From the IMG/VR virus record IMGVR_UViG_2671180294_000014: a stretch of 33,339 nucleotides of DNA; one strand, written 5' to 3'. The notes beneath the pieces are model-generated. The model had not been told where the DNA came from, searched no databases, and worked only from the letters and a program-made list of their open reading frames with translations. The translations under genes and the position numbers were made by a program. Shown here in pieces: positions 3,238 to 26,786 of this stretch. The stretch's first letter is position 1. Every line of letters begins with the position of its first letter. The stretch is from a virus. Lineage: Duplodnaviria; Heunggongvirae; Uroviricota; Caudoviricetes.

Positions 3238-3509
3238 GTATTCGTATTGAAATTGGCGAACGTTATGTCGTTACCAGTGACAGCTTCCAGTTTATTCTCC
3301 ACGAGAAAAAGAGAGCGGAAAGCGGTAAAAACGCCGGTCAGGAATGGCTGGCGGTGGTTGGTTATTACCCGAAATTAAGCCAGCTCGTTTCCGGCCTGAT
3401 GCATCACGATATTCTGACCGGAAGCGCAAAGTCTTTTGCTGATTTAAACGCGCAGGTTGAGCAACTCAGCAAGCGTTGTTCAGAGGCTTTTGGCTCATAT
3501 GGCCGTTAA
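3234..3509 (+). CDS. Hypothetical early protein (P2 orf83 position), 91 aa
   Basis: ORF with overlapping stops and starts. Confidence 0.55.
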   Translation: MSIRIEIGERYVVTSDSFQFILHEKKRAESGKNAGQEWLAVVGYYPKLSQLVSGLMHHDILTGSAKSFADLNAQVEQLSKRCSEAFGSYGR

Positions 3510-5796
3510 AGCCTCCGGGCGTTTTGTCCCTCCGTCAGCATTTGCTGCAGGCACCGGTAAGGCGTTTACCGGTGCTTATGCATGGAACGCGCCACGCGAG
3601 GCTGTCGGGCGCGAAAGACCCCTTACACGTGACGAGATGCGTCAGGTGCAAGGTGTTTTATCCACGATTAACCGCCTGCCTTACTTTTTGCGCTCGCTGT
3701 TTACGTCACGCTATGACTACATCCGGCGCAATAAAAGCCCGGTGCACGGGTTTTATTTCCTCACATCCACTTTTCAGCGTCGTTTATGGCCGCGCATTGA
3801 GCGTGTGAATCAGCGCCATGAAATGAACACCGACGCGTCGATGCTGTTTCTGGCTGAGCGTGACCACTATGCGCGCCTGCCGGGAATGAATGACAAGGAG
3901 CTGAAAAAGTTTGCCGCCCGTATCTCATCGCAGCTTTTCATGATGTATGAGGAACTCAGCGATGCCTGGGTGGATGCGCATGGCGAAAAAGAATCGCTGT
4001 TTACGGATGAGGCGCAGGCTCACCTCTATGGTCATGTTGCTGGCGCTGCACGTGCTTTCAATATTTCCCCTCTCTACTGGAAAAAATACCGTAAAGGACA
4101 GATGACCACGAGGCAGGCATATTCTGCCATTGCCCGTCTGTTTAACGATGAGTGGTGGATTAGTCAGCTTAAAGGCCAGCGTATGCGCTGGCATGAGGCG
4201 TTACTGATTGCTGTCGGGGAGGTCAATAAAGACCGTTCTCCTTATGCCAGTAAACATGCCATTCGTGATGTGCGTGCACGCCGCCAGGCAAATCTGGAAT
4301 TTCTTAAATCGTGTGATCTCGAAAACAGGGAAACAGGCGAGCGCATCGACCTTATCAGTAAGGTGATGGGCAGTATTTCTAATCCTGAAATTCGCCGGAT
4401 GGAGCTGATGAACACCATTGCCGGTATTGAGCGTTACGCCGCCGCAGAAGGTGATGTGGGGATGTTTATCACGCTGACCGCGCCGTCAAAGTATCACCCG
4501 ACACGTCAGGTTGGAAAAGGCGAAAGTAAAACCGTCCAGCTAAATCACGGCTGGAACGATGAGGCATTTAATCCAAAGGATGCGCAGCGTTATCTCTGCC
4601 GTATCTGGAGCCTGATGCGCACGGCATTCAAGGATAATGATTTACAGGTCTACGGTTTGCGAGTCGTCGAGCCACACCACGACGGAACGCCGCACTGGCA
4701 TATGATGCTTTTTTGTAATCCACGCCAGCGTAACCAGATTATCGAAATCATGCGTCGCTACGCGCTCAAAGAGGATGGCGACGAAAGAGGAGCTGCGCGA
4801 AACCGTTTTCAGGCAAAACATCTTAATCGGGGCGGTGCTGCGGGGTATATCGCGAAATACATCTCAAAAAATATCGACGGCTATGCACTGGATGGGCAGC
4901 TCGATAACGATAGCGGCAGACCGCTGAAAGATACTGCCGCGGCTGTTACCGCATGGGCGTCAACGTGGCGCATTCCGCAATTTAAAACGGTTGGCCTGCC
5001 GACAATGGGGGCTTACCGTGAACTACGCAAATTGCCTCGCGGCGTCAGCATTGCTGATGAGTTTGACGAGCGCGTCGAGGCTGCACGCGCCGCCGCAGAC
5101 AGTGGTGATTTTGCGCTGTATATCAGCGCGCAGGGTGGGGCAAATGTCCCGCGCGATTGTCAGACTGTCAGGGTCGCCCGTAGTCCGTCGGATGAAGTTA
5201 ACGAGTACGAGGAAGAAGTCGAGAGAGTGGTCGGCATTTACGCGCCGCATCTCGGCGCGCGTCATATTCATATCACCAGAACGACGGACTGGCGCATTGT
5301 TCCGAAAGTGCCGGTCGTTGAGCCTTTGACTTTAAAAAGCGGCATCGCCGCGCCTCGGAGTCCTGTCAATAACTGTGGAAAGCTCACTGGTGGTGATACT
5401 TCGTTACCGGCTCCCACACCTTCTGAGCACGCCGCAGCAGTGCTTAATCTGGTAGATGACGGTGTTATCGAATGGAATGACCCGGAGGTTGTGAGGGCGC
5501 TCAGAGGTGCATTAAAACACGGACTGAGAAGACCAAACCGTCAGCAAAGAAACGGAAGCCCGTTAAAACCGCATGAAATAGCGCCATCGGCCAGACTGAC
5601 CCGGTCGGAACGAATGCAAATTACCCGTATCCGCGTTGACCTTGCTCAGAACGGTATCAGGCCGCAGCGATGGGAGCTTGAGGTGCTGGCGCGTGGGGCA
5701 ACCGTAAATTATGACGGGAAAAAATTCACTTACCCGCTCGCTGATGAGTGGTCGGGATTCTCAACAGTATTAGAGTCAAACTCAGTGAAGCGTTAA
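3499..5796 (+). CDS. A: Replication initiation endonuclease A (rolling-circle, P2 gpA-like), about 765 aa
   Basis: Large ORF containing the rolling-circle Rep active-site motif YIAKYISKNIDG with paired tyrosines. The likely start is MAVKASGRF at 3499, with an AGAGG Shine-Dalgarno. The ORF is open from 3457. Confidence 0.92.
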   Translation: MAVKASGRFVPPSAFAAGTGKAFTGAYAWNAPREAVGRERPLTRDEMRQVQGVLSTINRLPYFLRSLFTSRYDYIRRNKSPVHGFYFLTSTFQRRLWPRIERVNQRHEMNTDASMLFLAERDHYARLPGMNDKELKKFAARISSQLFMMYEELSDAWVDAHGEKESLFTDEAQAHLYGHVAGAARAFNISPLYWKKYRKGQMTTRQAYSAIARLFNDEWWISQLKGQRMRWHEALLIAVGEVNKDRSPYASKHAIRDVRARRQANLEFLKSCDLENRETGERIDLISKVMGSISNPEIRRMELMNTIAGIERYAAAEGDVGMFITLTAPSKYHPTRQVGKGESKTVQLNHGWNDEAFNPKDAQRYLCRIWSLMRTAFKDNDLQVYGLRVVEPHHDGTPHWHMMLFCNPRQRNQIIEIMRRYALKEDGDERGAARNRFQAKHLNRGGAAGYIAKYISKNIDGYALDGQLDNDSGRPLKDTAAAVTAWASTWRIPQFKTVGLPTMGAYRELRKLPRGVSIADEFDERVEAARAAADSGDFALYISAQGGANVPRDCQTVRVARSPSDEVNEYEEEVERVVGIYAPHLGARHIHITRTTDWRIVPKVPVVEPLTLKSGIAAPRSPVNNCGKLTGGDTSLPAPTPSEHAAAVLNLVDDGVIEWNDPEVVRALRGALKHGLRRPNRQQRNGSPLKPHEIAPSARLTRSERMQITRIRVDLAQNGIRPQRWELEVLARGATVNYDGKKFTYPLADEWSGFSTVLESNSVKR

Positions 5797-5882
5797 CTCA
5801 ATAAATATGAGTTTATAAGTTAGGCCTCGAGATTTTGTAGAAAGGGATGTATACTGAGTATCGTATAGATTTGGAGTGAGTG

Positions 5883-6905
5883 ATGACTGTAAAGGTGATA
5901 GACCTTTTTTGTGGTGCTGGCGGATTAACTCATGGTTTGCAGCTTGCGGGGCTTGATGTCGTTGCAGGCATTGACCTTGAGGGGGAATGTAGGTTTCCCT
6001 ATGAAAGAAACAATAAATCTAAGTTTATTGAGCAAGATATCGCTAAAGTAACAAAAGAGGAACTGCTGAGGCTTTATGGTGATGCGTCTGTAAAAGTATT
6101 GGCAGGATGCGCACCTTGCCAACCTTTTTCAAAATATACTCAAGGAAAAGATAAGGCTGATGATAAAAAATGGCCTCTTCTTTATGAGTTCGAACGTTTA
6201 ATTCGCGAAGTATCTCCAGAAATCGTAACAATGGAGAACGTTCCTGATGTAACTAAACATAAAGTTTATAATGATTTTTATAATTCATTGTTAAAGTTGG
6301 GCTATTATGTTTGGGCGTCTAAGATTGATTGTGTCGAATATGGAATCCCACAAAACCGTTCCCGTCATGTATTGTTGGCCTCAAAATTGGGGGCGATTGA
6401 GTTAGTAAAACGTGACGATGTTATTTTGAAAACAGTTAGAGATGCAATAGGAAATCTTCCTCCATTAGAAGATGGCCAAACAGATCCAAATGATATATTA
6501 CATAGAGCCAGTAAATTAAATCCGATTAATAAAAAAAGAATTATACACTCTGTTCCTGGTGGTACATGGAAGGACTGGCCGAAAGAGTTGGTTGCCGCTT
6601 GTCATATGAAATCCAGCGGTAAAGGGTATGCTAGTGTATATGGGCGCATGTCTTGGGATAAGCCAAGTCCAACAATTACAACTCTTTGTTATGGTTTCGG
6701 GAATGGGCGTTTTGGACATCCAGAACAGCATAGAGCGATTTCTCTTAGAGAGGCTGCTTTATTGCAAACTTTCCCGATGGATTATATTTTTGTAGAAGAC
6801 AAAAACAAGTTTGTTATAAGAAGTATTGGGAAAATGATAGGTAATGCTGTTCCTGTGGAACTAGGAAAAGCAATTGGGCAATCAATCAAGAACCATTTAG
6901 AATGA
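5883..6905 (+). CDS. DNA (cytosine-5)-methyltransferase, 340 aa, hotspot cargo
   Basis: The m5C-MTase motifs are all present: I DLFCGAGG, IV GCAPCQPFS (catalytic PCQ), VI MENVPDV, VIII QNRSRHVLLAS, and X IGNAVPV. A GGAG Shine-Dalgarno lies 6-7 nt before the ATG (the ORF track starts at a GTG at 5880). The gene is visibly AT-rich compared with the phage backbone. Confidence 0.92.
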   Translation: MTVKVIDLFCGAGGLTHGLQLAGLDVVAGIDLEGECRFPYERNNKSKFIEQDIAKVTKEELLRLYGDASVKVLAGCAPCQPFSKYTQGKDKADDKKWPLLYEFERLIREVSPEIVTMENVPDVTKHKVYNDFYNSLLKLGYYVWASKIDCVEYGIPQNRSRHVLLASKLGAIELVKRDDVILKTVRDAIGNLPPLEDGQTDPNDILHRASKLNPINKKRIIHSVPGGTWKDWPKELVAACHMKSSGKGYASVYGRMSWDKPSPTITTLCYGFGNGRFGHPEQHRAISLREAALLQTFPMDYIFVEDKNKFVIRSIGKMIGNAVPVELGKAIGQSIKNHLE

Positions 6906-6911
6906 TAAAAT

Positions 6912-6928
6912 GGCCTGCTTTACAGGCC
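6912..6928. terminator. Bidirectional hairpin terminator GGCCTG-cttta-CAGGCC between the convergent MTase and HEPN genes
   Basis: Six-bp GC stem flanked by an A-run on one side and T residues on the other. Confidence 0.6.
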
Positions 6929-6934
6929 TTATAA

Positions 6935-7615
6935 CTATTGTTCTAAATATTCATTATTATTTATATAGTGCTCTATATTATTCACGATAGCATCAAGATA
7001 GGCGATTACTTCTAATGAAATATTCTCTAAGTCCTGATATGAAACATTTTTTCCAATCTCAGCAAATGATACATTGCCATGAGATAAATCATTACGATGT
7101 TGTTTAACAGTGGCTAATTTTTCACCATGTTTAGTGTGAGTGTAATCGGAATGTGTAGAAAAACCATATATTTTCGATTTTTCTTTGATTTCCTCTCTAT
7201 CAATATTTCCTGAGAATATTTTCTTTTTGTTGAACGTGCCATAAGATATACCGCAAGATATACCTTTGGTAAGGTGATTAACTAAACTTTCAACATTTAC
7301 AGATTCATTTTTTAATCTTTTTAATATTTCTGACCTGAGATTTTTCCTGAGTTTGTCAAATTCTACGTTTCTATCATAAATAGTCTCATGAATAAGGCAG
7401 ATAGCTTCTCTCATTGTTGATTCAATGAGGTTATATAACAGTATATATACTGCTCCCTTTAGAGTTTTTCGTGATTGAGCAGTAATGGAGAACTTATGTT
7501 CTTTATCATCAGCTGATATCAGTTCTGCACCGGCATACTCAATAAATTTCAAAAGATCCAAATAGGCCAAGATCTCTCCTGACCTTTCGTCAAAATCCTC
7601 ACGAAAACGATCCAT
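6935..7615 (-). CDS. HEPN-like (putative RNase) protein, 226 aa, downstream partner of the DUF262 gene
   Basis: KQHRNDLSHG contains an R-x4-H HEPN-type motif near the C-terminus. The size is typical of small stand-alone HEPN proteins. The gene is AT-rich. It is translationally coupled to the upstream gene (…GAT TAA C ATG, with GAGGA Shine-Dalgarno). Confidence 0.55.
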   Translation of the reverse strand: MDRFREDFDERSGEILAYLDLLKFIEYAGAELISADDKEHKFSITAQSRKTLKGAVYILLYNLIESTMREAICLIHETIYDRNVEFDKLRKNLRSEILKRLKNESVNVESLVNHLTKGISCGISYGTFNKKKIFSGNIDREEIKEKSKIYGFSTHSDYTHTKHGEKLATVKQHRNDLSHGNVSFAEIGKNVSYQDLENISLEVIAYLDAIVNNIEHYINNNEYLEQ

Positions 7616-7616
7616 G

Positions 7617-8759
7617 TTAATCCTCTAATAATTTATCCCGAACATATTCAATTCGTTCAATTACCTTCACGCGACTATTAGCTCCGTCGGAAGTGGTCAA
7701 TCGTTTGAATTCTTCTGAGCTTAGCCAATCTAAGTTCTTGGGAACAAGGTCAGGGACTTCACGTAATGCAAGTGCTGCGCCAACAGCGAGAGATTCGAAT
7801 CTAACTCGAGGTGTAGATTTTGCAGTAATAGTTTTCTTGAATCCTGCTGGGAAATAGTTTTCAACAAAAGATAGAACATTAGCAAACTCTTGTTTCATTG
7901 AGTTTTGTTTAGTTTCGTCTATATCTCGATTTTCTGACATATAGTCATTTAGAAAATCCCGTACGGAATGATCAAAGTTCTTGTACTTATCTACGTAGGC
8001 AAAGAATCTTAATGTAAATTCTAACCGTTCATCTCGTTTTTCTTTAGTCTGAGATAAAGGTGCTAATTCTTTAAATTTAGGTATTGTTGAGCATGGCTTA
8101 ATAACCTGTGTATATAAATTTGTTGAACCAAGTTCTGATCCTTTACGGACTTCCATATCTTTCAATATATCGCTGCCAGAGTTAATACGCTCAAAAAGAT
8201 CTCTACGGGTTTCTTCATTGCATTTAGAACTCAATTCTATAACGCGGACAGGAATTCTCATGAAACGACGTTGACGTGATAATGGTAAATCTTGGAATTT
8301 GAAACCATTAAGGACGTCTAAAGATTTCAGGTCTTGTAAAACTAATTCATTTTGGATAAAAGCGTGTATAGTCCTAACTCGTTGTGAGCCATCAACAATC
8401 TCAATTCGCCCATCTAAATCGGGATCTTCGGAGAGAACATCTGCTATAAATATATATGGTATAGGAAAACCCAAAATCAAAGACTCTATCAATTTTGATT
8501 GTCTTTTTTCACTCCAAACAAAATCCCTTTGATAATCAGGAACAAAGAGTTCGTTAGTATCATCCTCTAATCCGTTATGATACTTATTAACTAATAACTC
8601 AACGGTAAATTCTTTGGTCTCAAAATCCACATCCTTTTGCTCAGCACGAATTTGCTCTTCAGCGTTTTGCTTTATCACCTCTAGCTGAGCAAGCAACTCT
8701 GCTCTTTTCTTGGCATTATCTTCATTTTCTAGTTGAGATTTTAAATCAATAATGTCCAT
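7617..8759 (-). CDS. DUF262 (GmrS/ParB-like NTPase-nuclease fold) protein, about 380 aa, with an N-terminal coiled-coil
   Basis: Hallmark DUF262 motifs are FVPDYQRDFVWS and IEIVDGSQRVRT (DGQQR-type). The first ATG is at 8759, with an AAGGGA Shine-Dalgarno 7 nt upstream. The ORF track extends to a TTG at 8777. Confidence 0.85.
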   Translation of the reverse strand: MDIIDLKSQLENEDNAKKRAELLAQLEVIKQNAEEQIRAEQKDVDFETKEFTVELLVNKYHNGLEDDTNELFVPDYQRDFVWSEKRQSKLIESLILGFPIPYIFIADVLSEDPDLDGRIEIVDGSQRVRTIHAFIQNELVLQDLKSLDVLNGFKFQDLPLSRQRRFMRIPVRVIELSSKCNEETRRDLFERINSGSDILKDMEVRKGSELGSTNLYTQVIKPCSTIPKFKELAPLSQTKEKRDERLEFTLRFFAYVDKYKNFDHSVRDFLNDYMSENRDIDETKQNSMKQEFANVLSFVENYFPAGFKKTITAKSTPRVRFESLAVGAALALREVPDLVPKNLDWLSSEEFKRLTTSDGANSRVKVIERIEYVRDKLLED

Positions 8760-8944
8760 GTCTAGTTCCCTTAACAAGTGTTAAAAATTGAAGCGGATAG
8801 CATACCGCATAGATCATGAAAAATGCCATCATGTGCATGGATTTGCATGCGTCAGAAGTCGCTTTTATTGTTAGTTATCACTAGCGCTGGCGTGCTCTTG
8901 GAGTGTTCATGCAACTGCATTAAAACCGCCCCATGAAGCGGGCG

Positions 8945-8963
8945 GGCGAGGCGGGGAAAGCAC
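8945..8963. other. cos cohesive-end sequence GGCGAGGCGGGGAAAGCAC (P2-type 19-nt cohesive end)
   Basis: Exact 19-nt match to the P2 cohesive end as I recall it. It lies between the hotspot and Q, where cos sits in P2. Confidence 0.7.
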
Positions 8964-9130: not shown

Positions 9131-10165
9131 TCAGCCGTTGTCAGTGTCCAGTGAGTAGTTTTTAAAGCGGATGACCTCCTGACCGAGCCAGCCGTTTATC
9201 TCGCGGATCCTGTCCTGTAACGGGATAAGCTCATTGCGGACAAAGACCTTTGCCACTTTCTCAATATCACCCAGCGACCCGACGTTCTCCGGCTTGCCCC
9301 CCATCAACTGAAAGGGGATGCGGTGCGCGTCCAGCAGGTCAGCGGCGCTGGCTTTTTTGATATTAAAAAAATCGTCCTTCGTTGCCACTTCACTGAGCGG
9401 GATAATTTTAATGCCGTCGGCTTTCCCCTGTGGGGCATAGAGAAACAGATTTTTAAAGTTATTGCGGCCTTTCGACTTAACCATGTTTTCGCGAAGCATT
9501 TCGATATCGTTGCGATCCTGCACGGCATCGGTGACGTACATGATGTATCCGGCATGTGCGCCGTTTTCGTAATACTTGCGGCGGAACAGCGTGGCCGACT
9601 CATTCAGCCATGCAGAGTTAAGGGCGCTGAGATATTCCGGCAGGCCGTACAGCTCCTGATTAATATCAGGCTCCAGCAGGTGAAACACGGAGCCGGGCGC
9701 GAAGGCTGTCGGCTCGTTGAAGGACGGCACCCACCAGTAAACATCCTCCTCCACGCCACGACGGGTATATTTGGCCGGTGAGGTTTCCAGTCTGATGACC
9801 TTACCGGTGGTGCTGTAACGCTTTTCCAGAAACGCATTACCGAACACCAGAAAATCCAGCACAAAACGGCTGAAATCCTGCTGGGAAAGCCACGGGTGCG
9901 GGATAAACGTTGAAGCCAGAATATTACGTTTGACGTAAATCGGTGAGCTGTGATGCACGGCAGCACGCAGGCTTTTTGCCAGACCGGTAAAGCTGACCGG
10001 CGGCTCATACCATCTGCCGTTACTGATGCACTCGACGTAATCCAGAATGTCACGGCGGTCGAGTACCGGCACCGGCTCACCAAAGGTGAATGCTTCCATT
10101 TTCGGGGCGCTGGCGGTGATTGTTTTTGCCGCAGGTCGCGGTGTTTTCCCTTTTTTCTTGCTCAT
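9131..10165 (-). CDS. Q: Portal protein Q, 344 aa
   Basis: The length is identical to P2 gpQ. It is the first gene beside cos, and its start overlaps the stop of P. Confidence 0.93.
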   Translation of the reverse strand: MSKKKGKTPRPAAKTITASAPKMEAFTFGEPVPVLDRRDILDYVECISNGRWYEPPVSFTGLAKSLRAAVHHSSPIYVKRNILASTFIPHPWLSQQDFSRFVLDFLVFGNAFLEKRYSTTGKVIRLETSPAKYTRRGVEEDVYWWVPSFNEPTAFAPGSVFHLLEPDINQELYGLPEYLSALNSAWLNESATLFRRKYYENGAHAGYIMYVTDAVQDRNDIEMLRENMVKSKGRNNFKNLFLYAPQGKADGIKIIPLSEVATKDDFFNIKKASAADLLDAHRIPFQLMGGKPENVGSLGDIEKVAKVFVRNELIPLQDRIREINGWLGQEVIRFKNYSLDTDNG

Positions 10166-20802: not shown

Positions 20803-23121
20803 ATGAGCACAAAATTCAGAACCGTTATCACCACTGCCGGTGCAGCAAAGCTGGCAGCGGCAACCGCACCGGGAGGGCGGAAGGTCAACATTACCACGAT
20901 GGCCGTCGGGGATGGCGGTGGTAAATTGCCTGTCCCGGATGCCGGACAGACCGGGCTTATCCACGAAGTCTGGCGACATACGCTGAACAAAATCAGCCAG
21001 GACAAACGAAACAGTAATTATATTATCGCAGAGCTGGTTATTCCGCCGGAGGTGGGCGGTTTCTGGATGCGTGAGCTTGGCCTGTACGATGATGCGGGAA
21101 CGTTAATTGCCGTGGCGAACATGGCCGAAAGTTATAAGCCAGCTCTTGCCGAAGGCTCAGGGCGTTCGCAGACCTGTCGCATGGTCATCATCGTCAGCAG
21201 TGTGGCCTCGGTGGAGCTGACCATTGACACCACAACGGTGATGGCGACACAGGATTACGTTGATGACAAAATTGCAGAGCACGAACAGTCACGACGTCAC
21301 CCGGACGCCTCGCTGACCGCAAAAGGTTTTACTCAGTTAAGCAGTGCGACCAACAGCACGTCTGAAACACTGGCCGCAACGCCGAAAGCGGTAAAGGCCG
21401 CCTATGACCTTGCTAACGGGAAATATACCGCACAGGACGCTACCACAGCTCGAAAAGGTCTTGTCCAGCTCAGTAGTGCCACCAACAGCACGTCTGAAAC
21501 GCTTGCGGCAACGCCAAAGGCGGTTAAGACAGCGTATGACCTTGCTAACGGGAAATACACTGCACAGGACGCCACTACAGCGCGAAAAGGTCTTGTCCAG
21601 CTCAGTAGCGCCACCAACAGCGATTCTGAAACGCTTGCGGCAACACCAAAGGCGGTTAAGACAGCGTATGACCTTGCTAACGGGAAATACACTGCACAGG
21701 ATGCCACCACAGCGCGAAAAGGTCTTGTCCAGCTAAGTAGTGCCATCAACAGCGATTCTGAAACGCTGGCCGCAACGCCAAAAGCAGTGAAGTCTGCCTA
21801 TGACAATGCTGAAAAACGTCTTCAGAAAGATCAGAACGGTGCGGATATTCCGGGAAAGGATACCTTCACGAAAAATATCGGTGCCTGTCGTGCTTATAGC
21901 GGCGCTTTGAGCACTGAAGCCGGAAACTGGACAACCGCTCAGTTTATTGAATGGCTGGATTCCCGTGGTGCATTTAATCATCCGTACTGGATGTGCAAAG
22001 GCTCCTGGTCATATGCAAATAACAAAATCATTACGGATACCGGATGTGGTGATATCCACCTGGCTGGTTGTGTCGTCGAGGTCATGGGAACTAAATCTGC
22101 AATCACTATCCGAGTGACCACGCCAACAACATCAAGCGGTGGCGGTACAACCAGCGCGCAATTCACTTACATAAATCATGGGGACGGCTACTCCCCCGGC
22201 TGGCGTCGTGACTGGAATCGTCAGGGCGACTCAATGACCGGAACGATTAATCAGGATGGCGGAAGCCAGAATGCCTATATGTCTACGGCCTTATGTTCAG
22301 GCACCAGAGGCGGCAAAAAATATCTCAGAAAGTTTCGTGGTGGAGAAGGAGATACTATCTGGCATGAAACAGTTCAGGGCGGGGTAATTCGCTGGGCGAC
22401 AGGAAACAATGACGCTCAGGAAGAATTATCACTCAGCTCCGCTTATGGTCTCCGTTCAAGAGGTGAAATTACATCACTCAGTGCTAATGGTCTGCGCATT
22501 GCTTATGGCAATTATGGATTCTTTATCAGGAATGATGGCGGCAGCACATATTTAATGCTGACGGCCTCTGGCGATAAATTTGGGACATGGAACGGCTTAA
22601 GACCGCTGACTATCAATAACGCCAATGGCGGAGTGTCAATGGGGCATGGCCTGAGTGTTACAGGTGATATTGTCTCAAGTACCAAAGTACGTGCCGGTAG
22701 CGGGAAAAAGTTCACGGTCAGCAGCAGCAATACATCCACGAAGGAAGCCGCATTCAATTTGTGGGGAAACTCAAGTCGTCCTGTGGTGGCTGAATTAGGT
22801 GATGATGCAGGCTGGCATTTTTACAGTCAGAGAAATACAGATAACAGCATCACTTTTGCTGTTAACGGGCAGGTATCACCATCTAACTATGGCAACTTTG
22901 ATTCACGCTATGTCCGGGATATCCGGCTTGGTGGTGCTGCCACATACAAACCTGCGAACAATGGTATGACATGGACACATCAGGCACCGTCCGGGTGTGT
23001 ATATTCCGGCATTATTGTTCAGGATACCGGCTCAAACTCTGCCGATAACATTGGTGGCGTATATTACAGACCGGTGCAGAAATACATTAACGGGACTTGG
23101 TATAACGTGGCACAGGTATAA
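20803..23121 (+). CDS. H: Tail fibre protein H, 772 aa, with an internal 44-aa tandem-repeat region and a divergent receptor-binding C-terminal part
   Basis: The N-terminal roughly 170 aa match P2 gpH. The protein is about 100 aa longer than P2 H (669 aa) because of the repeats. Confidence 0.9.
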   Translation: MSTKFRTVITTAGAAKLAAATAPGGRKVNITTMAVGDGGGKLPVPDAGQTGLIHEVWRHTLNKISQDKRNSNYIIAELVIPPEVGGFWMRELGLYDDAGTLIAVANMAESYKPALAEGSGRSQTCRMVIIVSSVASVELTIDTTTVMATQDYVDDKIAEHEQSRRHPDASLTAKGFTQLSSATNSTSETLAATPKAVKAAYDLANGKYTAQDATTARKGLVQLSSATNSTSETLAATPKAVKTAYDLANGKYTAQDATTARKGLVQLSSATNSDSETLAATPKAVKTAYDLANGKYTAQDATTARKGLVQLSSAINSDSETLAATPKAVKSAYDNAEKRLQKDQNGADIPGKDTFTKNIGACRAYSGALSTEAGNWTTAQFIEWLDSRGAFNHPYWMCKGSWSYANNKIITDTGCGDIHLAGCVVEVMGTKSAITIRVTTPTTSSGGGTTSAQFTYINHGDGYSPGWRRDWNRQGDSMTGTINQDGGSQNAYMSTALCSGTRGGKKYLRKFRGGEGDTIWHETVQGGVIRWATGNNDAQEELSLSSAYGLRSRGEITSLSANGLRIAYGNYGFFIRNDGGSTYLMLTASGDKFGTWNGLRPLTINNANGGVSMGHGLSVTGDIVSSTKVRAGSGKKFTVSSSNTSTKEAAFNLWGNSSRPVVAELGDDAGWHFYSQRNTDNSITFAVNGQVSPSNYGNFDSRYVRDIRLGGAATYKPANNGMTWTHQAPSGCVYSGIIVQDTGSNSADNIGGVYYRPVQKYINGTWYNVAQV
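21334..21800 (+). repeat. About 3.5 tandem copies of a 132-bp (44-aa) in-frame repeat inside H (unit QLSSATNSTSETLAATPKAVKAAYDLANGKYTAQDATTARKGLV)
   Basis: The unit starts at 21334, 21466, 21598 and 21730. Copies are more than 90% identical at the DNA level. Confidence 0.9.
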
Positions 23122-23124
23122 TTT

Positions 23125-23652
23125 ATGCAGCATTTGATAAATATAACGGCAGGTAATCCAAAAACGGTTGAACAATATCAATTGACAAAGGACTTTGATG
23201 TTGTCTGGTTTTTTTCAGAAGATGGTAAGAACTGGTACGAAGAACAAAAGTATTTTGCTGATGACACGATAAAAATAGCGTACGACAAAGATAATATTAT
23301 CCGCTATGTGGAAAAGGATGTGACAGCTATCAGACCGGATGGATTAAGTGTTGTTGAAGTGCCGGATATTACTGCTAACCGACGGGCGGACATTTCAGGG
23401 AACTGGATGTTTAAGGACTGTACAGTGATTAAACGAATTTATACGGCAGAGGAATTGCAGCAGCAGGCAGAAAATCGGAAAGCCAGACTTCTTGCAGATG
23501 CTGAATCCGTGATTTTGCCGCTGGAGCGCGCTGTCAGGCTGAATATGGCAACAGATGAGGAGCGCAGTCGACTGGAGGCATGGGAACGCTACAGTGTTCT
23601 GGTCAGTCGTGTGGATCCTGCAAATCCTGAATGGCCGGAAATGCCGCAATAA
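23125..23652 (+). CDS. G: Tail fibre assembly chaperone G, 175 aa
   Basis: Length and position match P2 gpG. Confidence 0.88.
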
Positions 23653-23734
23653 GTTGTATGAGCTCTGGTGTGAGCTTACATATCTATGGCACAGAGTAAA
23701 GCCTAATCTGAGAGTCCGCTCTGTGCCAGAAGTA

Positions 23735-23762
23735 GACGCACAAGGTGGGCGTGTCTTTTTCT
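23735..23762 (+). terminator. Rho-independent terminator after the V-to-G operon (GACGCAC-aaggtgg-GCGTGTC followed by TTTTTCTT)
   Basis: Imperfect 7-bp stem followed by a T-run. Confidence 0.5.
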
Positions 23763-23766
23763 TAAG

Positions 23767-25185
23767 CTACATCGGGCTCTTATATGGGGAATGAGAGTTT
23801 TTGAAACGCGGTTCTTCATGCTTCGGACTGTAAATTCTTGCATGATTATCTATCACAACTTTACTTCCAAGAATATCTCGAGCTTCTCCTAACGACCACA
23901 CAGTAGAAAGATCATTAGTCAAATTTCGATAGAGAGCACGAAACCCCTTGGGTTTTTTAAGATCATATAAGAAATCAGGAACTTTAACTTTAAAATTAAA
24001 GGTCGGTAGTTTCGGAAGGGAATTAATAGCCGCAACAGTATTGTATACATGTACAAGCTTAGTTACAGGTACACCTTGTCTAGTCTTGAGCCCATACTTA
24101 GTTCGAATATAATCTGATTCTTTCGATACTTCAGTAAGCAATGCTCTTACTGACTTATTAGCTTGAGGCAATTCATTTTCATCAAACAAGCGCTTTATTT
24201 CTCGCATTTTCTCACGGGCCCTTACAAATTCGTTGTTGTCCCTTATGTTATAAGCAGCTTCAACAATACAACTTGGATCACCAGTTTCTTTTGCGAGCCA
24301 TGCCGAAAATAAAGGAAGCGAAGTTGCTGTTGCTACAGCTTTACCACCAGAATGAATATCAATGAGATCATGACTTAACGAAGTGGAAAAGTTTTCTACA
24401 ATATGTTTAGCATAGTCAAAACCATACTGACAGTTTTGGCTTAAATATGTCTGTTGATACGCCTGACGTAATGGATATAAAAAAGTATCTGCTTGAAGGT
24501 ACTTAGCTGTGAGAGAATAAAATACTGCCCGATTAGCCAGCCATACAAGCGAAGCCACGAATGCTTTGATTGCATCTGATGCTTCACCAGCAGATGTGCC
24601 ATCCCCCCATTTTGCTCCGGGAACTTTGTACCCCTTGCGAATAGGGTTGCCAAATCGATCGAGAAGTTCAACATCGCCATTTGTTCTATTACCAGACTCA
24701 GCAGCATCACGCAGTTCTGAAAAAATGGCAGCAGCAATGTTACCATATTTTTCAAACTCCTTACCTCCATCAGATAAGTTCTTCAGTGTTAGATGATAAA
24801 CACTTGAACTAATGTCCCATGTACATATGATATGTGTCTGAAGAAGTTCAATTAGTTTTTTAAAATCGTCATTAACAAATGTTCCACCACGAATTTTAGG
24901 TTTCAATGCATCAGATATTTTTTTTGCTTCACTTTCAATTTCATCCAACCCATATTGTGCTTTATCAAGAAATAATATCTCTCTGAAACTTGAAATCCTA
25001 CTCCCACGGTACTCTGGAATATAATCATCAACCGCGATAACGTGATCATAGAACAAAATAGACTGTATATAGTTCTCAAATGCTATTATGTCTGTATCTA
25101 CTGAGTCCTTCGATCTTGTTTTTACTTTCCCCTCGATTCTTTGGACTGCAGTTAGAGTTGAATTATCAATCAGTGCGTATGTCAT
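23767..25185 (-). CDS. Hypothetical 472-aa protein, AT-rich cargo at the P2 Z/fun hotspot position. No recognisable catalytic motif, and no Walker A.
   Basis: Long ORF on the strand opposite to the flanking late genes. It has its own promoter and Shine-Dalgarno (AAGGA 7 nt before the ATG). Its codon and GC usage are unlike the phage backbone. Confidence 0.8.
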   Translation of the reverse strand: MTYALIDNSTLTAVQRIEGKVKTRSKDSVDTDIIAFENYIQSILFYDHVIAVDDYIPEYRGSRISSFREILFLDKAQYGLDEIESEAKKISDALKPKIRGGTFVNDDFKKLIELLQTHIICTWDISSSVYHLTLKNLSDGGKEFEKYGNIAAAIFSELRDAAESGNRTNGDVELLDRFGNPIRKGYKVPGAKWGDGTSAGEASDAIKAFVASLVWLANRAVFYSLTAKYLQADTFLYPLRQAYQQTYLSQNCQYGFDYAKHIVENFSTSLSHDLIDIHSGGKAVATATSLPLFSAWLAKETGDPSCIVEAAYNIRDNNEFVRAREKMREIKRLFDENELPQANKSVRALLTEVSKESDYIRTKYGLKTRQGVPVTKLVHVYNTVAAINSLPKLPTFNFKVKVPDFLYDLKKPKGFRALYRNLTNDLSTVWSLGEARDILGSKVVIDNHARIYSPKHEEPRFKNSHSPYKSPM

Positions 25186-25213
25186 TTACATTCCTTAAAT
25201 AAAAAACATTAAT

Positions 25214-25238
25214 GGTTGCTCCAAAAATACTAGCAACC
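25214..25238. promoter_or_regulatory. Perfect 7-bp inverted repeat GGTTGCT-N11-AGCAACC spanning the -10 of that promoter (candidate operator)
   Basis: Read directly from the sequence. Confidence 0.35.
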
Positions 25239-25256
25239 TTATTTCAGTGAAGTCAA
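25227..25256 (-). promoter_or_regulatory. Sigma70-like promoter of the 472-aa gene: TTGACT (25256-25251), 18-nt spacer, TAGTAT (25232-25227), on the minus strand
   Basis: Good -35 and -10 hexamers with correct spacing, about 40 nt upstream of the start codon. Confidence 0.55.
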
Positions 25257-25473
25257 TTTTTTAACATTAATCATTTACACACGCTTGAAAAGTGATCGCT
25301 GAAAATGGCATTTACTACATTATCAAAGTTCCCATCGAAGATAATCGAAATTTTTCCCGGTAGCAGATATCGTGAGATTTAACGCTTTTCGCTCATAGCA
25401 GGCTGTCAGATTTGATAGCGTTTGGGCTATGTAAACTGTCAGTCGGAAAATGAGTGTGTACAAATCAGGACAT

Positions 25474-25500
25474 GCGGGCGAATTGCCCGCATTTTCTTTA
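25474..25500 (+). terminator. Stem-loop GCGGGC-gaatt-GCCCGC followed by ATTTTCTTT (terminator-like) inside the hotspot-2/FI intergenic region
   Basis: Six-bp GC stem plus a U-rich tail on the plus strand, immediately upstream of the FI late-promoter element. Confidence 0.35.
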
Positions 25501-25502
25501 TC

Positions 25503-25523
25503 TGTTGTTTCATCCACTGACCA
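25503..25523. promoter_or_regulatory. Late promoter PF activator-site candidate, TGTTGT-tTCA...ACCA (TGT-N12-CCA)
   Basis: Near-identical to the element at 12004-12024. It lies about 75 bp upstream of the FI start, which has a GGAG Shine-Dalgarno at 25584. Confidence 0.45.
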
Positions 25524-25595
25524 GCCAGGTCAAATAGCGTCTCATGCACTGCCCAACAGAAAATAGTTGCACCCATTAACCACGGAGTTAAACGG

Positions 25596-26786
25596 ATGAG
25601 TGACTATCATCACGGCGTGCAGGTGCTGGAGATTAACGACGGCACCCGCGTCATTTCCACCGTATCCACTGCCATTGTCGGCATGGTCTGCACGGCCAGC
25701 GATGCGGATGCGGAAACCTTCCCCCTCAATAAACCGGTGCTGATTACCAATGTGCAGAGCGCAATTGCAAAGGCCGGTAAAAAAGGCACGCTGGCGGCAT
25801 CGTTGCAGGCCATCGCCGACCAGTCAAAACCGGTCACCGTTGTCGTGCGTGTGGAAGACGGCACCGGCGACGACGAGGAAACGAAACTCGCGCAGACCGT
25901 TTCCAATATCATCGGCACCACCGACGAAAACGGTCAGTACACCGGACTGAAAGCCCTGCTGGCGGCGGAGTCGGTAACCGGTGTTAAACCGCGTATTCTC
26001 GGCGTGCCGGGACTGGACACCAAAGAGGTGGCTGTTGCACTGGCATCAGTCTGTCAGAAGCTGCGCGCTTTCGGGTATATCAGCGCATGGGGCTGTAAGA
26101 CCGTTTCCGAGGTGAAAGCCTACCGTCAGAATTTCAGCCAGCGTGAGCTGATGGTCATCTGGCCGGATTTCCTCGCATGGGATACGGTCGCCAGTACCAC
26201 CGCCACCGCGTATGCCACCGCCCGTGCGCTGGGTCTGCGCGCTAAAATCGACCAGGAGCAGGGCTGGCATAAAACGCTGTCCAACGTCGGGGTGAACGGT
26301 GTTACCGGCATCAGCGCGTCCGTATTCTGGGATTTGCAGGAGTCCGGCACCGATGCTGACCTGCTTAACGAGTCAGGCGTCACAACGCTGATTCGCCGTG
26401 ACGGTTTCCGCTTCTGGGGTAACCGTACCTGCTCTGATGACCCGCTGTTCCTCTTTGAAAACTACACCCGCACCGCGCAGGTGCTGGCCGACACGATGGC
26501 TGAGGCGCACATGTGGGCGGTGGACAAGCCCATCACCGCAACGCTGATTCGCGACATCGTTGACGGCATCAATGCCAAATTCCGTGAGCTGAAAACAAAC
26601 GGCTATATCGTGGATGCGACCTGCTGGTTCAGCGAAGAATCCAACGATGCGGAAACCCTCAAGGCCGGAAAACTGTATATCGACTACGACTATACCCCGG
26701 TGCCTCCTCTTGAAAACCTGACCCTGCGCCAGCGTATTACCGATAAATACCTGGCAAATCTGGTCACCTCGGTTAACAGCAATTAA
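25596..26786 (+). CDS. FI: Tail sheath protein FI, 396 aa
   Basis: Length and position match P2 gpFI. Confidence 0.92.
   Translation: MSDYHHGVQVLEINDGTRVISTVSTAIVGMVCTASDADAETFPLNKPVLITNVQSAIAKAGKKGTLAASLQAIADQSKPVTVVVRVEDGTGDDEETKLAQTVSNIIGTTDENGQYTGLKALLAAESVTGVKPRILGVPGLDTKEVAVALASVCQKLRAFGYISAWGCKTVSEVKAYRQNFSQRELMVIWPDFLAWDTVASTTATAYATARALGLRAKIDQEQGWHKTLSNVGVNGVTGISASVFWDLQESGTDADLLNESGVTTLIRRDGFRFWGNRTCSDDPLFLFENYTRTAQVLADTMAEAHMWAVDKPITATLIRDIVDGINAKFRELKTNGYIVDATCWFSEESNDAETLKAGKLYIDYDYTPVPPLENLTLRQRITDKYLANLVTSVNSN

Follow-up and report, generated by a model that had tools for sequence, protein, structure and literature searches.

A candidate defence cassette of DUF262, HEPN and cytosine-methyltransferase genes in hotspot 1 of a P2-like prophage

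The 33,339-nucleotide viral DNA IMGVR_UViG_2671180294_000014 (the window, by which we mean this stretch at its full length) is a P2-like prophage. Between its replication gene A and its cos site lies an AT-rich insert made up of three open reading frames (ORFs), with room for no further ORF. Two of them, encoding a DUF262 protein and an HEPN protein, lie on the minus strand; the third, encoding a cytosine methyltransferase, converges on them from the plus strand. This report concerns these three genes, a trio that has been catalogued earlier and that is an experimentally untouched relative of the anti-phage system PD-T4-2, carrying its own methylase. The genes, the hairpin between the two transcription units and the borders of the slot are as follows.

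5760 to 8909: AT-rich cargo insert of about 3.15 kb in P2 hotspot 1, the slot between gene A and cos; delimited by a dip in guanine-plus-cytosine (GC) content and by blastn borders
7617 to 8759, minus strand: DUF262 protein (ParB/GmrS type) of 380 amino acids (aa), with YQR at residues 76-78, DGSQR at residues 123-127 and a helical C-terminal half; predicted nucleoside triphosphate (NTP)-dependent DNA sensor
6935 to 7615, minus strand: HEPN protein of the MAE_28990 family, 226 aa, with the motif R174-N-D-L-S-H179; predicted ribonuclease (RNase) effector
5883 to 6905, plus strand: C5-cytosine DNA methyltransferase (PF00145), 340 aa, with a predicted catalytic Cys79 in its PCQ motif
6912 to 6928: GC-rich intergenic hairpin between the convergent units, matched by a terminator scan on the minus strand
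3457 to 5796, plus strand: gene A replication endonuclease, the left border of the hotspot (PF05840 Phage_GPA, E = 2e-123), with 96-98% DNA identity up to 5759
8945 to 8963, plus strand: P2 cos, the right border of the hotspot, 19 nt identical to cosL of P2 (NC_001895)

The GC fraction is 0.31-0.40 over positions ~5800-8800, compared with 0.50-0.60 in the flanks. Many Peduovirus genomes match the flanks at 96-98% identity, with their own slot between gene A and cos occupied by other cargo, such as the CDT toxin, VbhT, DUF4209, or Dcm plus paraMORC3. The blastn match to the P2-like phages PhiR44_1 and P24B2 stops at 5759 and, in PhiR44_1, restarts at 8910. A previous reading of the window, made from its letters alone (the sequence-only reading), had described an AT-rich island in a backbone of roughly 50-55% GC and had placed it at the P2 old/tin hotspot; both descriptions are borne out. 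The island that it outlined at 5797-8780 is real, but homology of the backbone corrects its borders to 5760-8909. No near-identical DNA of the island was found among sequenced phages; relatives at the protein level do exist. Rfam has no family at threshold anywhere in the window, and the repeats within the insert are only short ones, at chance level.

The DUF262 protein matches PF03235 (E = 8e-26) and contains the YQRDFVW and DGSQR motifs, in agreement with its original assignment. Its reading frame would span 7617-8777 on the minus strand if begun at TTG 8777, but the start is likely the ATG at 8759, which gives the 380-aa protein found in RefSeq. No Pfam family other than PF03235 was matched, and neither Pfam nor PADLOC revealed a DUF1524/HNH or other nuclease domain. 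A single PADLOC REase_II model (PDLC03418) matches the DUF262 region weakly (E = 9.4e-6), with no recognised DNase domain. By fold, the protein comes closest to BrxU and SspE, in each case to the half that is not the nuclease, and the PADLOC matches to SspE, HEC-05/06 and Orf5 span only residues ~70-160. The partnership of a DUF262 protein devoid of DUF1524/HNH with an adjacent HEPN protein was thus correctly recognised at the outset. With no detectable nuclease domain in the DUF262 protein, the HEPN protein is therefore the sole predicted catalytic effector of the operon.

That predicted effector matches PF18737 (HEPN_MAE_28990) at E = 5.8e-29, above the gathering score, and PF18735 at E = 8e-9; the expected 226-aa HEPN protein with an Rx4H motif (RNDLSH) is therefore present. 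In an alignment of 59 diverse HEPN relatives, R174 and H179 are the sole invariant columns. A fold search found a resemblance to HepT toxins at the level of the HEPN domain only; a PDB sequence search with the protein returned chance matches only, and no PADLOC model matched it at E < 1. The family comprises at least 1,700 clusters at 50% identity (1,721 at E ≤ 1e-3).

The methyltransferase matches PF00145 over its full length (E = 3.4e-58) and TIGR00675 with 130 bits. Its translation displays FCGAGG, PCQ, ENV, QNRSR and GNAVP, which are all of the motifs, and the enzyme is complete, as first proposed. Of the two possible starts of the ORF (5880/5883-6905), the ATG at 5883, giving 340 aa, is the likely one. 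DrmMII is the best PADLOC match (E = 1.2e-90), followed by MTase_II (E = 6.7e-89); PDB sequence matches are to M.HaeIII, DNMT1 and M.HhaI, and RefSeq labels a 99%-identical copy as a DNA cytosine methyltransferase. A target site was sought from these matches, but those to the N-terminal half of HaeIII, the C-terminal part of DNMT1 and DrmMII do not permit one to be called. Upstream of the gene lies the following promoter candidate, which we regard as weak because the count of such sites in the region is not above shuffle expectation.

5827 to 5855, plus strand: sigma-70-like promoter candidate (TCGAGA-17-TATACT, 9/12 matches)

The two minus-strand genes are closely coupled: the stop codon of the DUF262 gene (TAA) is separated from the ATG of the HEPN gene by a 1-nt spacer, with GAGGA just upstream. 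This arrangement upholds the earlier view that they are translationally coupled. Beyond the HEPN gene, the hairpin at 6912-6928 has a 7-bp stem followed, on the minus strand, by ATTTTAT; the plus-strand tail is poor. Its folding energy is -10.8 kcal/mol on the plus strand and -12.3 kcal/mol on the minus strand (z ~ -4.3), and 0/200 shuffles are as stable. The hairpin had been taken for a terminator shared by both units. The hairpin itself is well founded, but, given the poor plus-strand tail, it would chiefly terminate transcription of the minus-strand operon.

The sequence-only reading recognised no named system in the DUF262-HEPN pair and judged the island its best candidate for an undescribed one. 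Both statements go too far. PD-T4-2, from Escherichia coli ECOR65, is recorded as “DUF262, HEPN” (Vassallo et al. 2022). Its A protein matches PF03235, and its B protein matches HEPN_RiboL-PSP (PF18735) and HEPN_MAE_28990 (PF18737) by HHpred (Vassallo et al. 2022); the two are RCO39066.1 and an unannotated ORF on QOYX01000002. The two-gene clone protects against T4, and its deletion from ECOR65 restores T4 plaquing (Vassallo et al. 2022). The ten systems selected with T4, PD-T4-2 among them, were generally protective against T2 and T6 as well (Vassallo et al. 2022). The trio itself has also been catalogued. Table S5 of Rousset et al. 2022 lists the same arrangement among E. coli P2 hotspot loci, with the methyltransferase WP_001697730; an E. 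coli copy of the island that is 98% identical carries this accession as its annotated methylase. An operon type of MAE_28990 HEPN, ParB and DNA methylase was listed in silico by Anantharaman et al. 2013, and RefSeq already names all three proteins correctly. The window contains every element of that operon type: an active-type Rx4-6H HEPN of the MAE_28990 family, and an adjacent ParB-superfamily (DUF262) protein and methylase. Common to the window and to these two listings are the HEPN Pfam family and the three-gene content, and the P2 hotspot entry is the same thing as the island; both are catalogue entries without experiments or mechanism, and the table of tested systems in Rousset et al. 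2022 has no DUF262 entry. In the literature searched, no paper turned up that tests the trio or explains the mechanism of PD-T4-2. DARNA was considered as a possible renaming of PD-T4-2 and was discarded; it is PD-T7-3. To these catalogues, the distribution, co-divergence, pattern of methylase loss and fold evidence reported here are additions.

The likeness to PD-T4-2 was gauged with PADLOC hidden Markov models as a proxy for protein-to-protein comparison. Like PD-T4-2, the window has a two-gene operon in which a nuclease-less DUF262 protein of ~360-380 aa precedes an HEPN protein of the PF18735/PF18737 type, and both operons occur in E. coli. Residues 79-378 of the window's DUF262 protein match positions 55-356 (of 363) of the PD-T4-2_A model with E = 2.5e-35. 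This protein is best described as a relative of PD-T4-2_A, rather than its close orthologue, at the level of model matches. The HEPN proteins belong to a common clade at the Pfam level (PF18735/PF18737) but to different lineages, and the B protein of PD-T4-2 is shorter, its HHpred alignments stopping near residue 163 (both of its ORFs total 1,540 bp). Further, the cloned PD-T4-2 has no methylase, whereas the window has one. Strong homology to a named system is thus found for the DUF262 protein (PD-T4-2_A, NsnA) but not for the HEPN protein, which no PADLOC model matched. Taken together, we consider it very probable that the DUF262-HEPN pair is a PD-T4-2-like defence module.

Other named systems resemble the trio in part. 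The window's DUF262 protein matches the NsnA model of Menshen (NsnABC) nearly end to end (25-376 of 385, E = 1.7e-54). NsnA has a layout of ParB-DUF262 plus a helical DNA-binding domain and has been proposed to sense DNA on behalf of an RNase effector. The window, however, has neither the NsnB ABC ATPase nor NsnC (inPIN plus nuclease), and its effector is a separate 226-aa HEPN protein. At the level of hidden Markov models, the 2023 PADLOC set would name the cassette neither PD-T4-2 nor Menshen, nor any other system, because PD-T4-2_B, NsnB and NsnC are not matched. With GmrSD, BrxU and SspE the protein has in common a DUF262 N-terminal domain with its DGxQR pocket, but it lacks their DUF1524/HNH DNase and stops at residue 380 in the helical domain; the effector is instead separately encoded and a predicted RNase, and the pocket reads DGSQR instead of DGQQR. 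SspE provides a precedent for a DUF262 protein that operates beside a self-modification system. On the methylase side, the enzyme is 55% identical to the Dcm of the PhiR44_1 Dcm plus paraMORC3 pair (L095, PV340563.1, 2628-5676), which is likewise convergent with its partner in the same hotspot, and its best PADLOC model is the DrmMII of class 2 DISARM. This methylase subfamily thus also pairs with other unconventional partners, although those partners are unrelated to DUF262 or HEPN. As in Type II restriction-modification (R-M), the window has a complete methyltransferase. The HEPN-MNT toxin-antitoxin systems differ in that the window has no MNT gene and the partner of its HEPN protein is DUF262.

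We conclude that there is a broad class of two-gene modules composed of an NsnA-like DUF262 protein and an HEPN protein, with PD-T4-2 as its one validated lineage and the MAE_28990 lineage of the window as another. In other hotspots of temperate phages, the Klebsiella phage ST16-OXA48phi5.4 (L089, 2863-4766) and the Vibrio phage PE004 (L090, 2809-5080), for example, carry pairs of NsnA-like DUF262 and RiboL-PSP-HEPN genes. Neither pair has an adjacent methylase, and PADLOC PD-T4-2_B recognises neither.

The distribution of the genes was examined by a profile scan of one genome per species, which yielded 316 loci with an HEPN relative; the best 80 of the 316 were analysed. A homologue search with the DUF262 protein gave 3,567 matches, of which the best 120 were considered, as were the best 150 of an exhaustive HEPN profile search. 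A DUF262 gene lies directly upstream of the HEPN gene, on the same strand, in all 80 loci. An orthologous m5C (5-methylcytosine) methylase, 52-86% identical, adjoins the pair in 38 of them: 35 times convergent and downstream (gap of 2-139 nt), once downstream on the same strand and twice upstream. In 38 others no such enzyme occurs within 6 kb, and four loci are truncated. The hosts include Enterobacterales, Vibrionaceae, Pseudoalteromonas, Methylococcales, Bacteroidales, Pyrinomonadales and many cyanobacteria, among them Microcystis, the source of the family name (MAE_28990). Of 72 related loci, 71 retain YQR and all retain DGxQR. In nine loci, mostly from Microcoleus (L039, L055, L060, L064, L068, L070, L074, L075 and L081), similarity between the gene upstream of HEPN and the DUF262 protein is confined to residues ~24-194 of the latter; such genes may encode a short form with DUF262 alone or be degraded copies.

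Among 42 intact trios, Mantel tests on pairwise identities gave r = 0.84 for DUF262 with the methylase, 0.88 for DUF262 with HEPN and 0.76 for HEPN with the methylase (p ≤ 5e-4 for each). All deep-branching DUF262 lineages have the methylase, and the methylase-less loci are derived cyanobacterial clades; the nearest neighbour has the same methylase state in 70 of 72 cases. Two leads from these comparisons were dropped. A split between DGSQR in methylase-linked loci and DGTQR in methylase-less ones does not hold, as methylase-linked cyanobacterial loci also have DGTQR. The large ORFs upstream of methylase-less pairs are not hidden methylases or helicases but aconitase B, ClpB, CobN and similar housekeeping genes.

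No neighbours outside the trio are conserved across its prophage and chromosomal contexts. The trio is found in P2-like prophages of E. coli and Salmonella, in the Moraxella phages Mcat24-32 and the Peduovirus P24B2, and at chromosomal sites between unrelated housekeeping genes. In Klebsiella pneumoniae (L085-L088, 7001-9886), a lambdoid prophage carries a trio with 85-87% identity, flanked by the replication genes and by the RusA/antiterminator region; the trio occurs on hundreds of contigs, and the index of the collection has its protein in 487 blocks. In Providencia (L093/L094, 4886-8871), the trio lies beside a truncated portal gene (204 aa) and otherwise among housekeeping genes (ahpCF and others). 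The cassette thus appears to have been kept there after a P2-like prophage decayed. P24B2 (L083, LR595873.1, 140-3041) has a diverged trio in the same slot as the window. The island is rare in complete E. coli genomes (9/5,426); the exact proteins of the window are found on ~680-800 contigs, mostly from Shigella sonnei, E. coli and other Enterobacteriaceae.

The reading that we favour, with a probability of about 0.55, is that the insert is a mobile three-gene defence cassette composed of a DUF262 NTPase sensor, an HEPN RNase effector and a co-inherited, self-marking methylase; we infer its mechanism. By analogy with BrxU, SspE, GmrSD and NsnA, the nuclease-less DUF262 protein would bind DNA, and NTP binding or hydrolysis at its DGSQR pocket would act as a switch. 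With the sensor triggered, the HEPN protein, whose Rx4H motif is intact, would cleave RNA, as expected of the HEPN Rx4-6H RNase family, with abortive infection or growth arrest as the outcome. The convergent m5C methyltransferase would mark host and prophage DNA as self for the sensor, which amounts to R-M logic with an RNase output. The parts of this scheme differ in strength. An anti-phage function for the lineage in the window is expected by analogy with PD-T4-2. Of the module with an RNase effector that was suggested from the outset, the role in defence or abortive infection is plausible in view of the PD-T4-2 precedent, and the RNase activity is a prediction from family membership. Functional coupling of the methylase to the pair is probable. 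That its methylation spares self is a suggestion drawn from linkage, to which we give somewhat less than even odds. More tentative still, and on the doubtful side, is the specific proposal that the DUF262 protein reads the cytosine-methylation state set by its own cassette, such that unmarked incoming DNA switches on the HEPN RNase and an abortive response.

Several observations weigh against this reading, some of them at its link to PD-T4-2 and others at the place it gives to the methylase. The DUF262 protein scores higher on Menshen NsnA than on PD-T4-2_A. Further, PADLOC PD-T4-2_B detects neither the HEPN protein of the window nor 58 other relatives, phage-borne ones included. The tie to PD-T4-2 is thus one of architecture and of homology between A proteins, as judged from models. 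The co-divergence signal is in part shared host phylogeny. The remaining points favour the alternative that survives best, namely that the methylase is independent cargo, an orphan or an anti-restriction enzyme shielding the DNA of phage or host from other restriction systems, and that the pair is a stand-alone sensor, either type-IV-like (triggered by modified DNA of the T-even type) or triggered by another infection cue, the two merely being inherited side by side. The 38 loci without a methylase within 6 kb keep all of the catalytic motifs of the pair (RNxLAHG, YQR and DGxQR). In a Dolichospermum metagenome-assembled genome (L016, 6716-6964), an 83-aa methylase remnant (70% identical, residues 247-329) lies beside an intact pair and is therefore direct evidence of methylase loss while the pair persists. 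In P24B2, the methylase, with 72-76% identity, has a frameshift near residue 226 and may be a pseudogene or a sequencing error; it stands beside an intact, highly diverged pair (DUF262 46% and HEPN 30% identical), and the divergences of the modules are discordant. PD-T4-2 was cloned, and worked, as a two-gene region only, and all DNase-like systems of that study but one were encoded without a DNA methylase (Vassallo et al. 2022); its range of T-even phages suggests modified DNA as the trigger. Table S6 of Rousset et al. 2022 labels a Vibrio DUF262+HEPN_MAE_28990 locus “Type-IV restriction”, and the Klebsiella and Vibrio phage pairs described above likewise have no methylase next to them.

Nonetheless, we hold an independent methylase to be unlikely. 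Its orthologues stay next to the pair, at gaps of 2-139 nt and nearly always in convergent orientation, across five phyla or more and four kinds of genomic context that conserve nothing else, and their divergence tracks that of the pair almost as closely as the DUF262 and HEPN genes track each other. All deep branches carry the methylase, and the clades without it are derived, with a state common to nearest neighbours. Moreover, a type-IV sensor beside an m5C methylase would have to ignore that mark. The points against a strictly protective methylase fit several accounts: lack of the mark does not make the pair lethal, other methylases of the genome substitute, or the methylase tunes the system rather than gates it.

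Another possibility is that the HEPN protein is a guard in the manner of PrrC, whereby DUF262 and the methylase constitute a primary R-M layer and the HEPN protein, held inactive, fires suicidally once an anti-restriction factor disables that layer. Anantharaman et al. 2013, who list the operon type, argue for PrrC-like control of R-M-associated HEPN proteins. HEPN always follows DUF262 directly and in tight coupling, as would suit a stoichiometric complex, and nuclease activity has been cited as possible in ParB/Srx proteins. However, apart from the NTP-binding DGxQR pocket, neither a DNase domain nor a DNase motif was found in the DUF262 protein, whose closest folds are the non-nuclease halves noted above. 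The methylase-less lineages persist, and no trigger protein is known. We thus find such a guard improbable. Least probable is an addiction or stabilisation module of the toxin-antitoxin kind, with HEPN as toxin, DUF262 as antitoxin and defence as a side effect: the retention of the cassette in the decayed Providencia prophage and at chromosomal sites would suit it, but upstream of HEPN stands a sensor-type DUF262 protein of 380 aa, neither an MNT nor a small antitoxin, the homologous architecture of PD-T4-2 gives clear phage defence, and in one K. pneumoniae genome (L087) HEPN is called as an N-terminally shortened 160-aa product beside intact DUF262 and methylase genes.

Outside the insert, two further genes of the P2-like prophage were placed.

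1 to 1011: integrase
9131 to 10165, minus strand: portal protein Q (PF04860), so annotated in the 98%-identical E. coli locus

A further AT-rich island, with GC 0.33-0.46, lies in 22800-25600 at the second P2 hotspot position, with the tail-fibre genes on one side and the next tail gene on the other. Its lone ORF, 23767-25185 on the minus strand, encodes 472 aa and has no match in Pfam or PADLOC.

The three small genes, from an E. coli or Shigella prophage, lend themselves to direct tests in E. coli K-12. To our knowledge, discrimination by DNA methylation that drives an RNase has not been established for any characterised system. If the methylase is indeed the self-marking arm of the cassette, the island would be a compact case of it; if instead the methylase is independent, the finding is one more PD-T4-2-like module in a known hotspot. 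R-M logic with an RNase output would thus be notable if true, whereas the other readings are ordinary. The cassette is in any event widespread, moving among P2-like, lambdoid and Moraxella phages and the chromosomes of several phyla.

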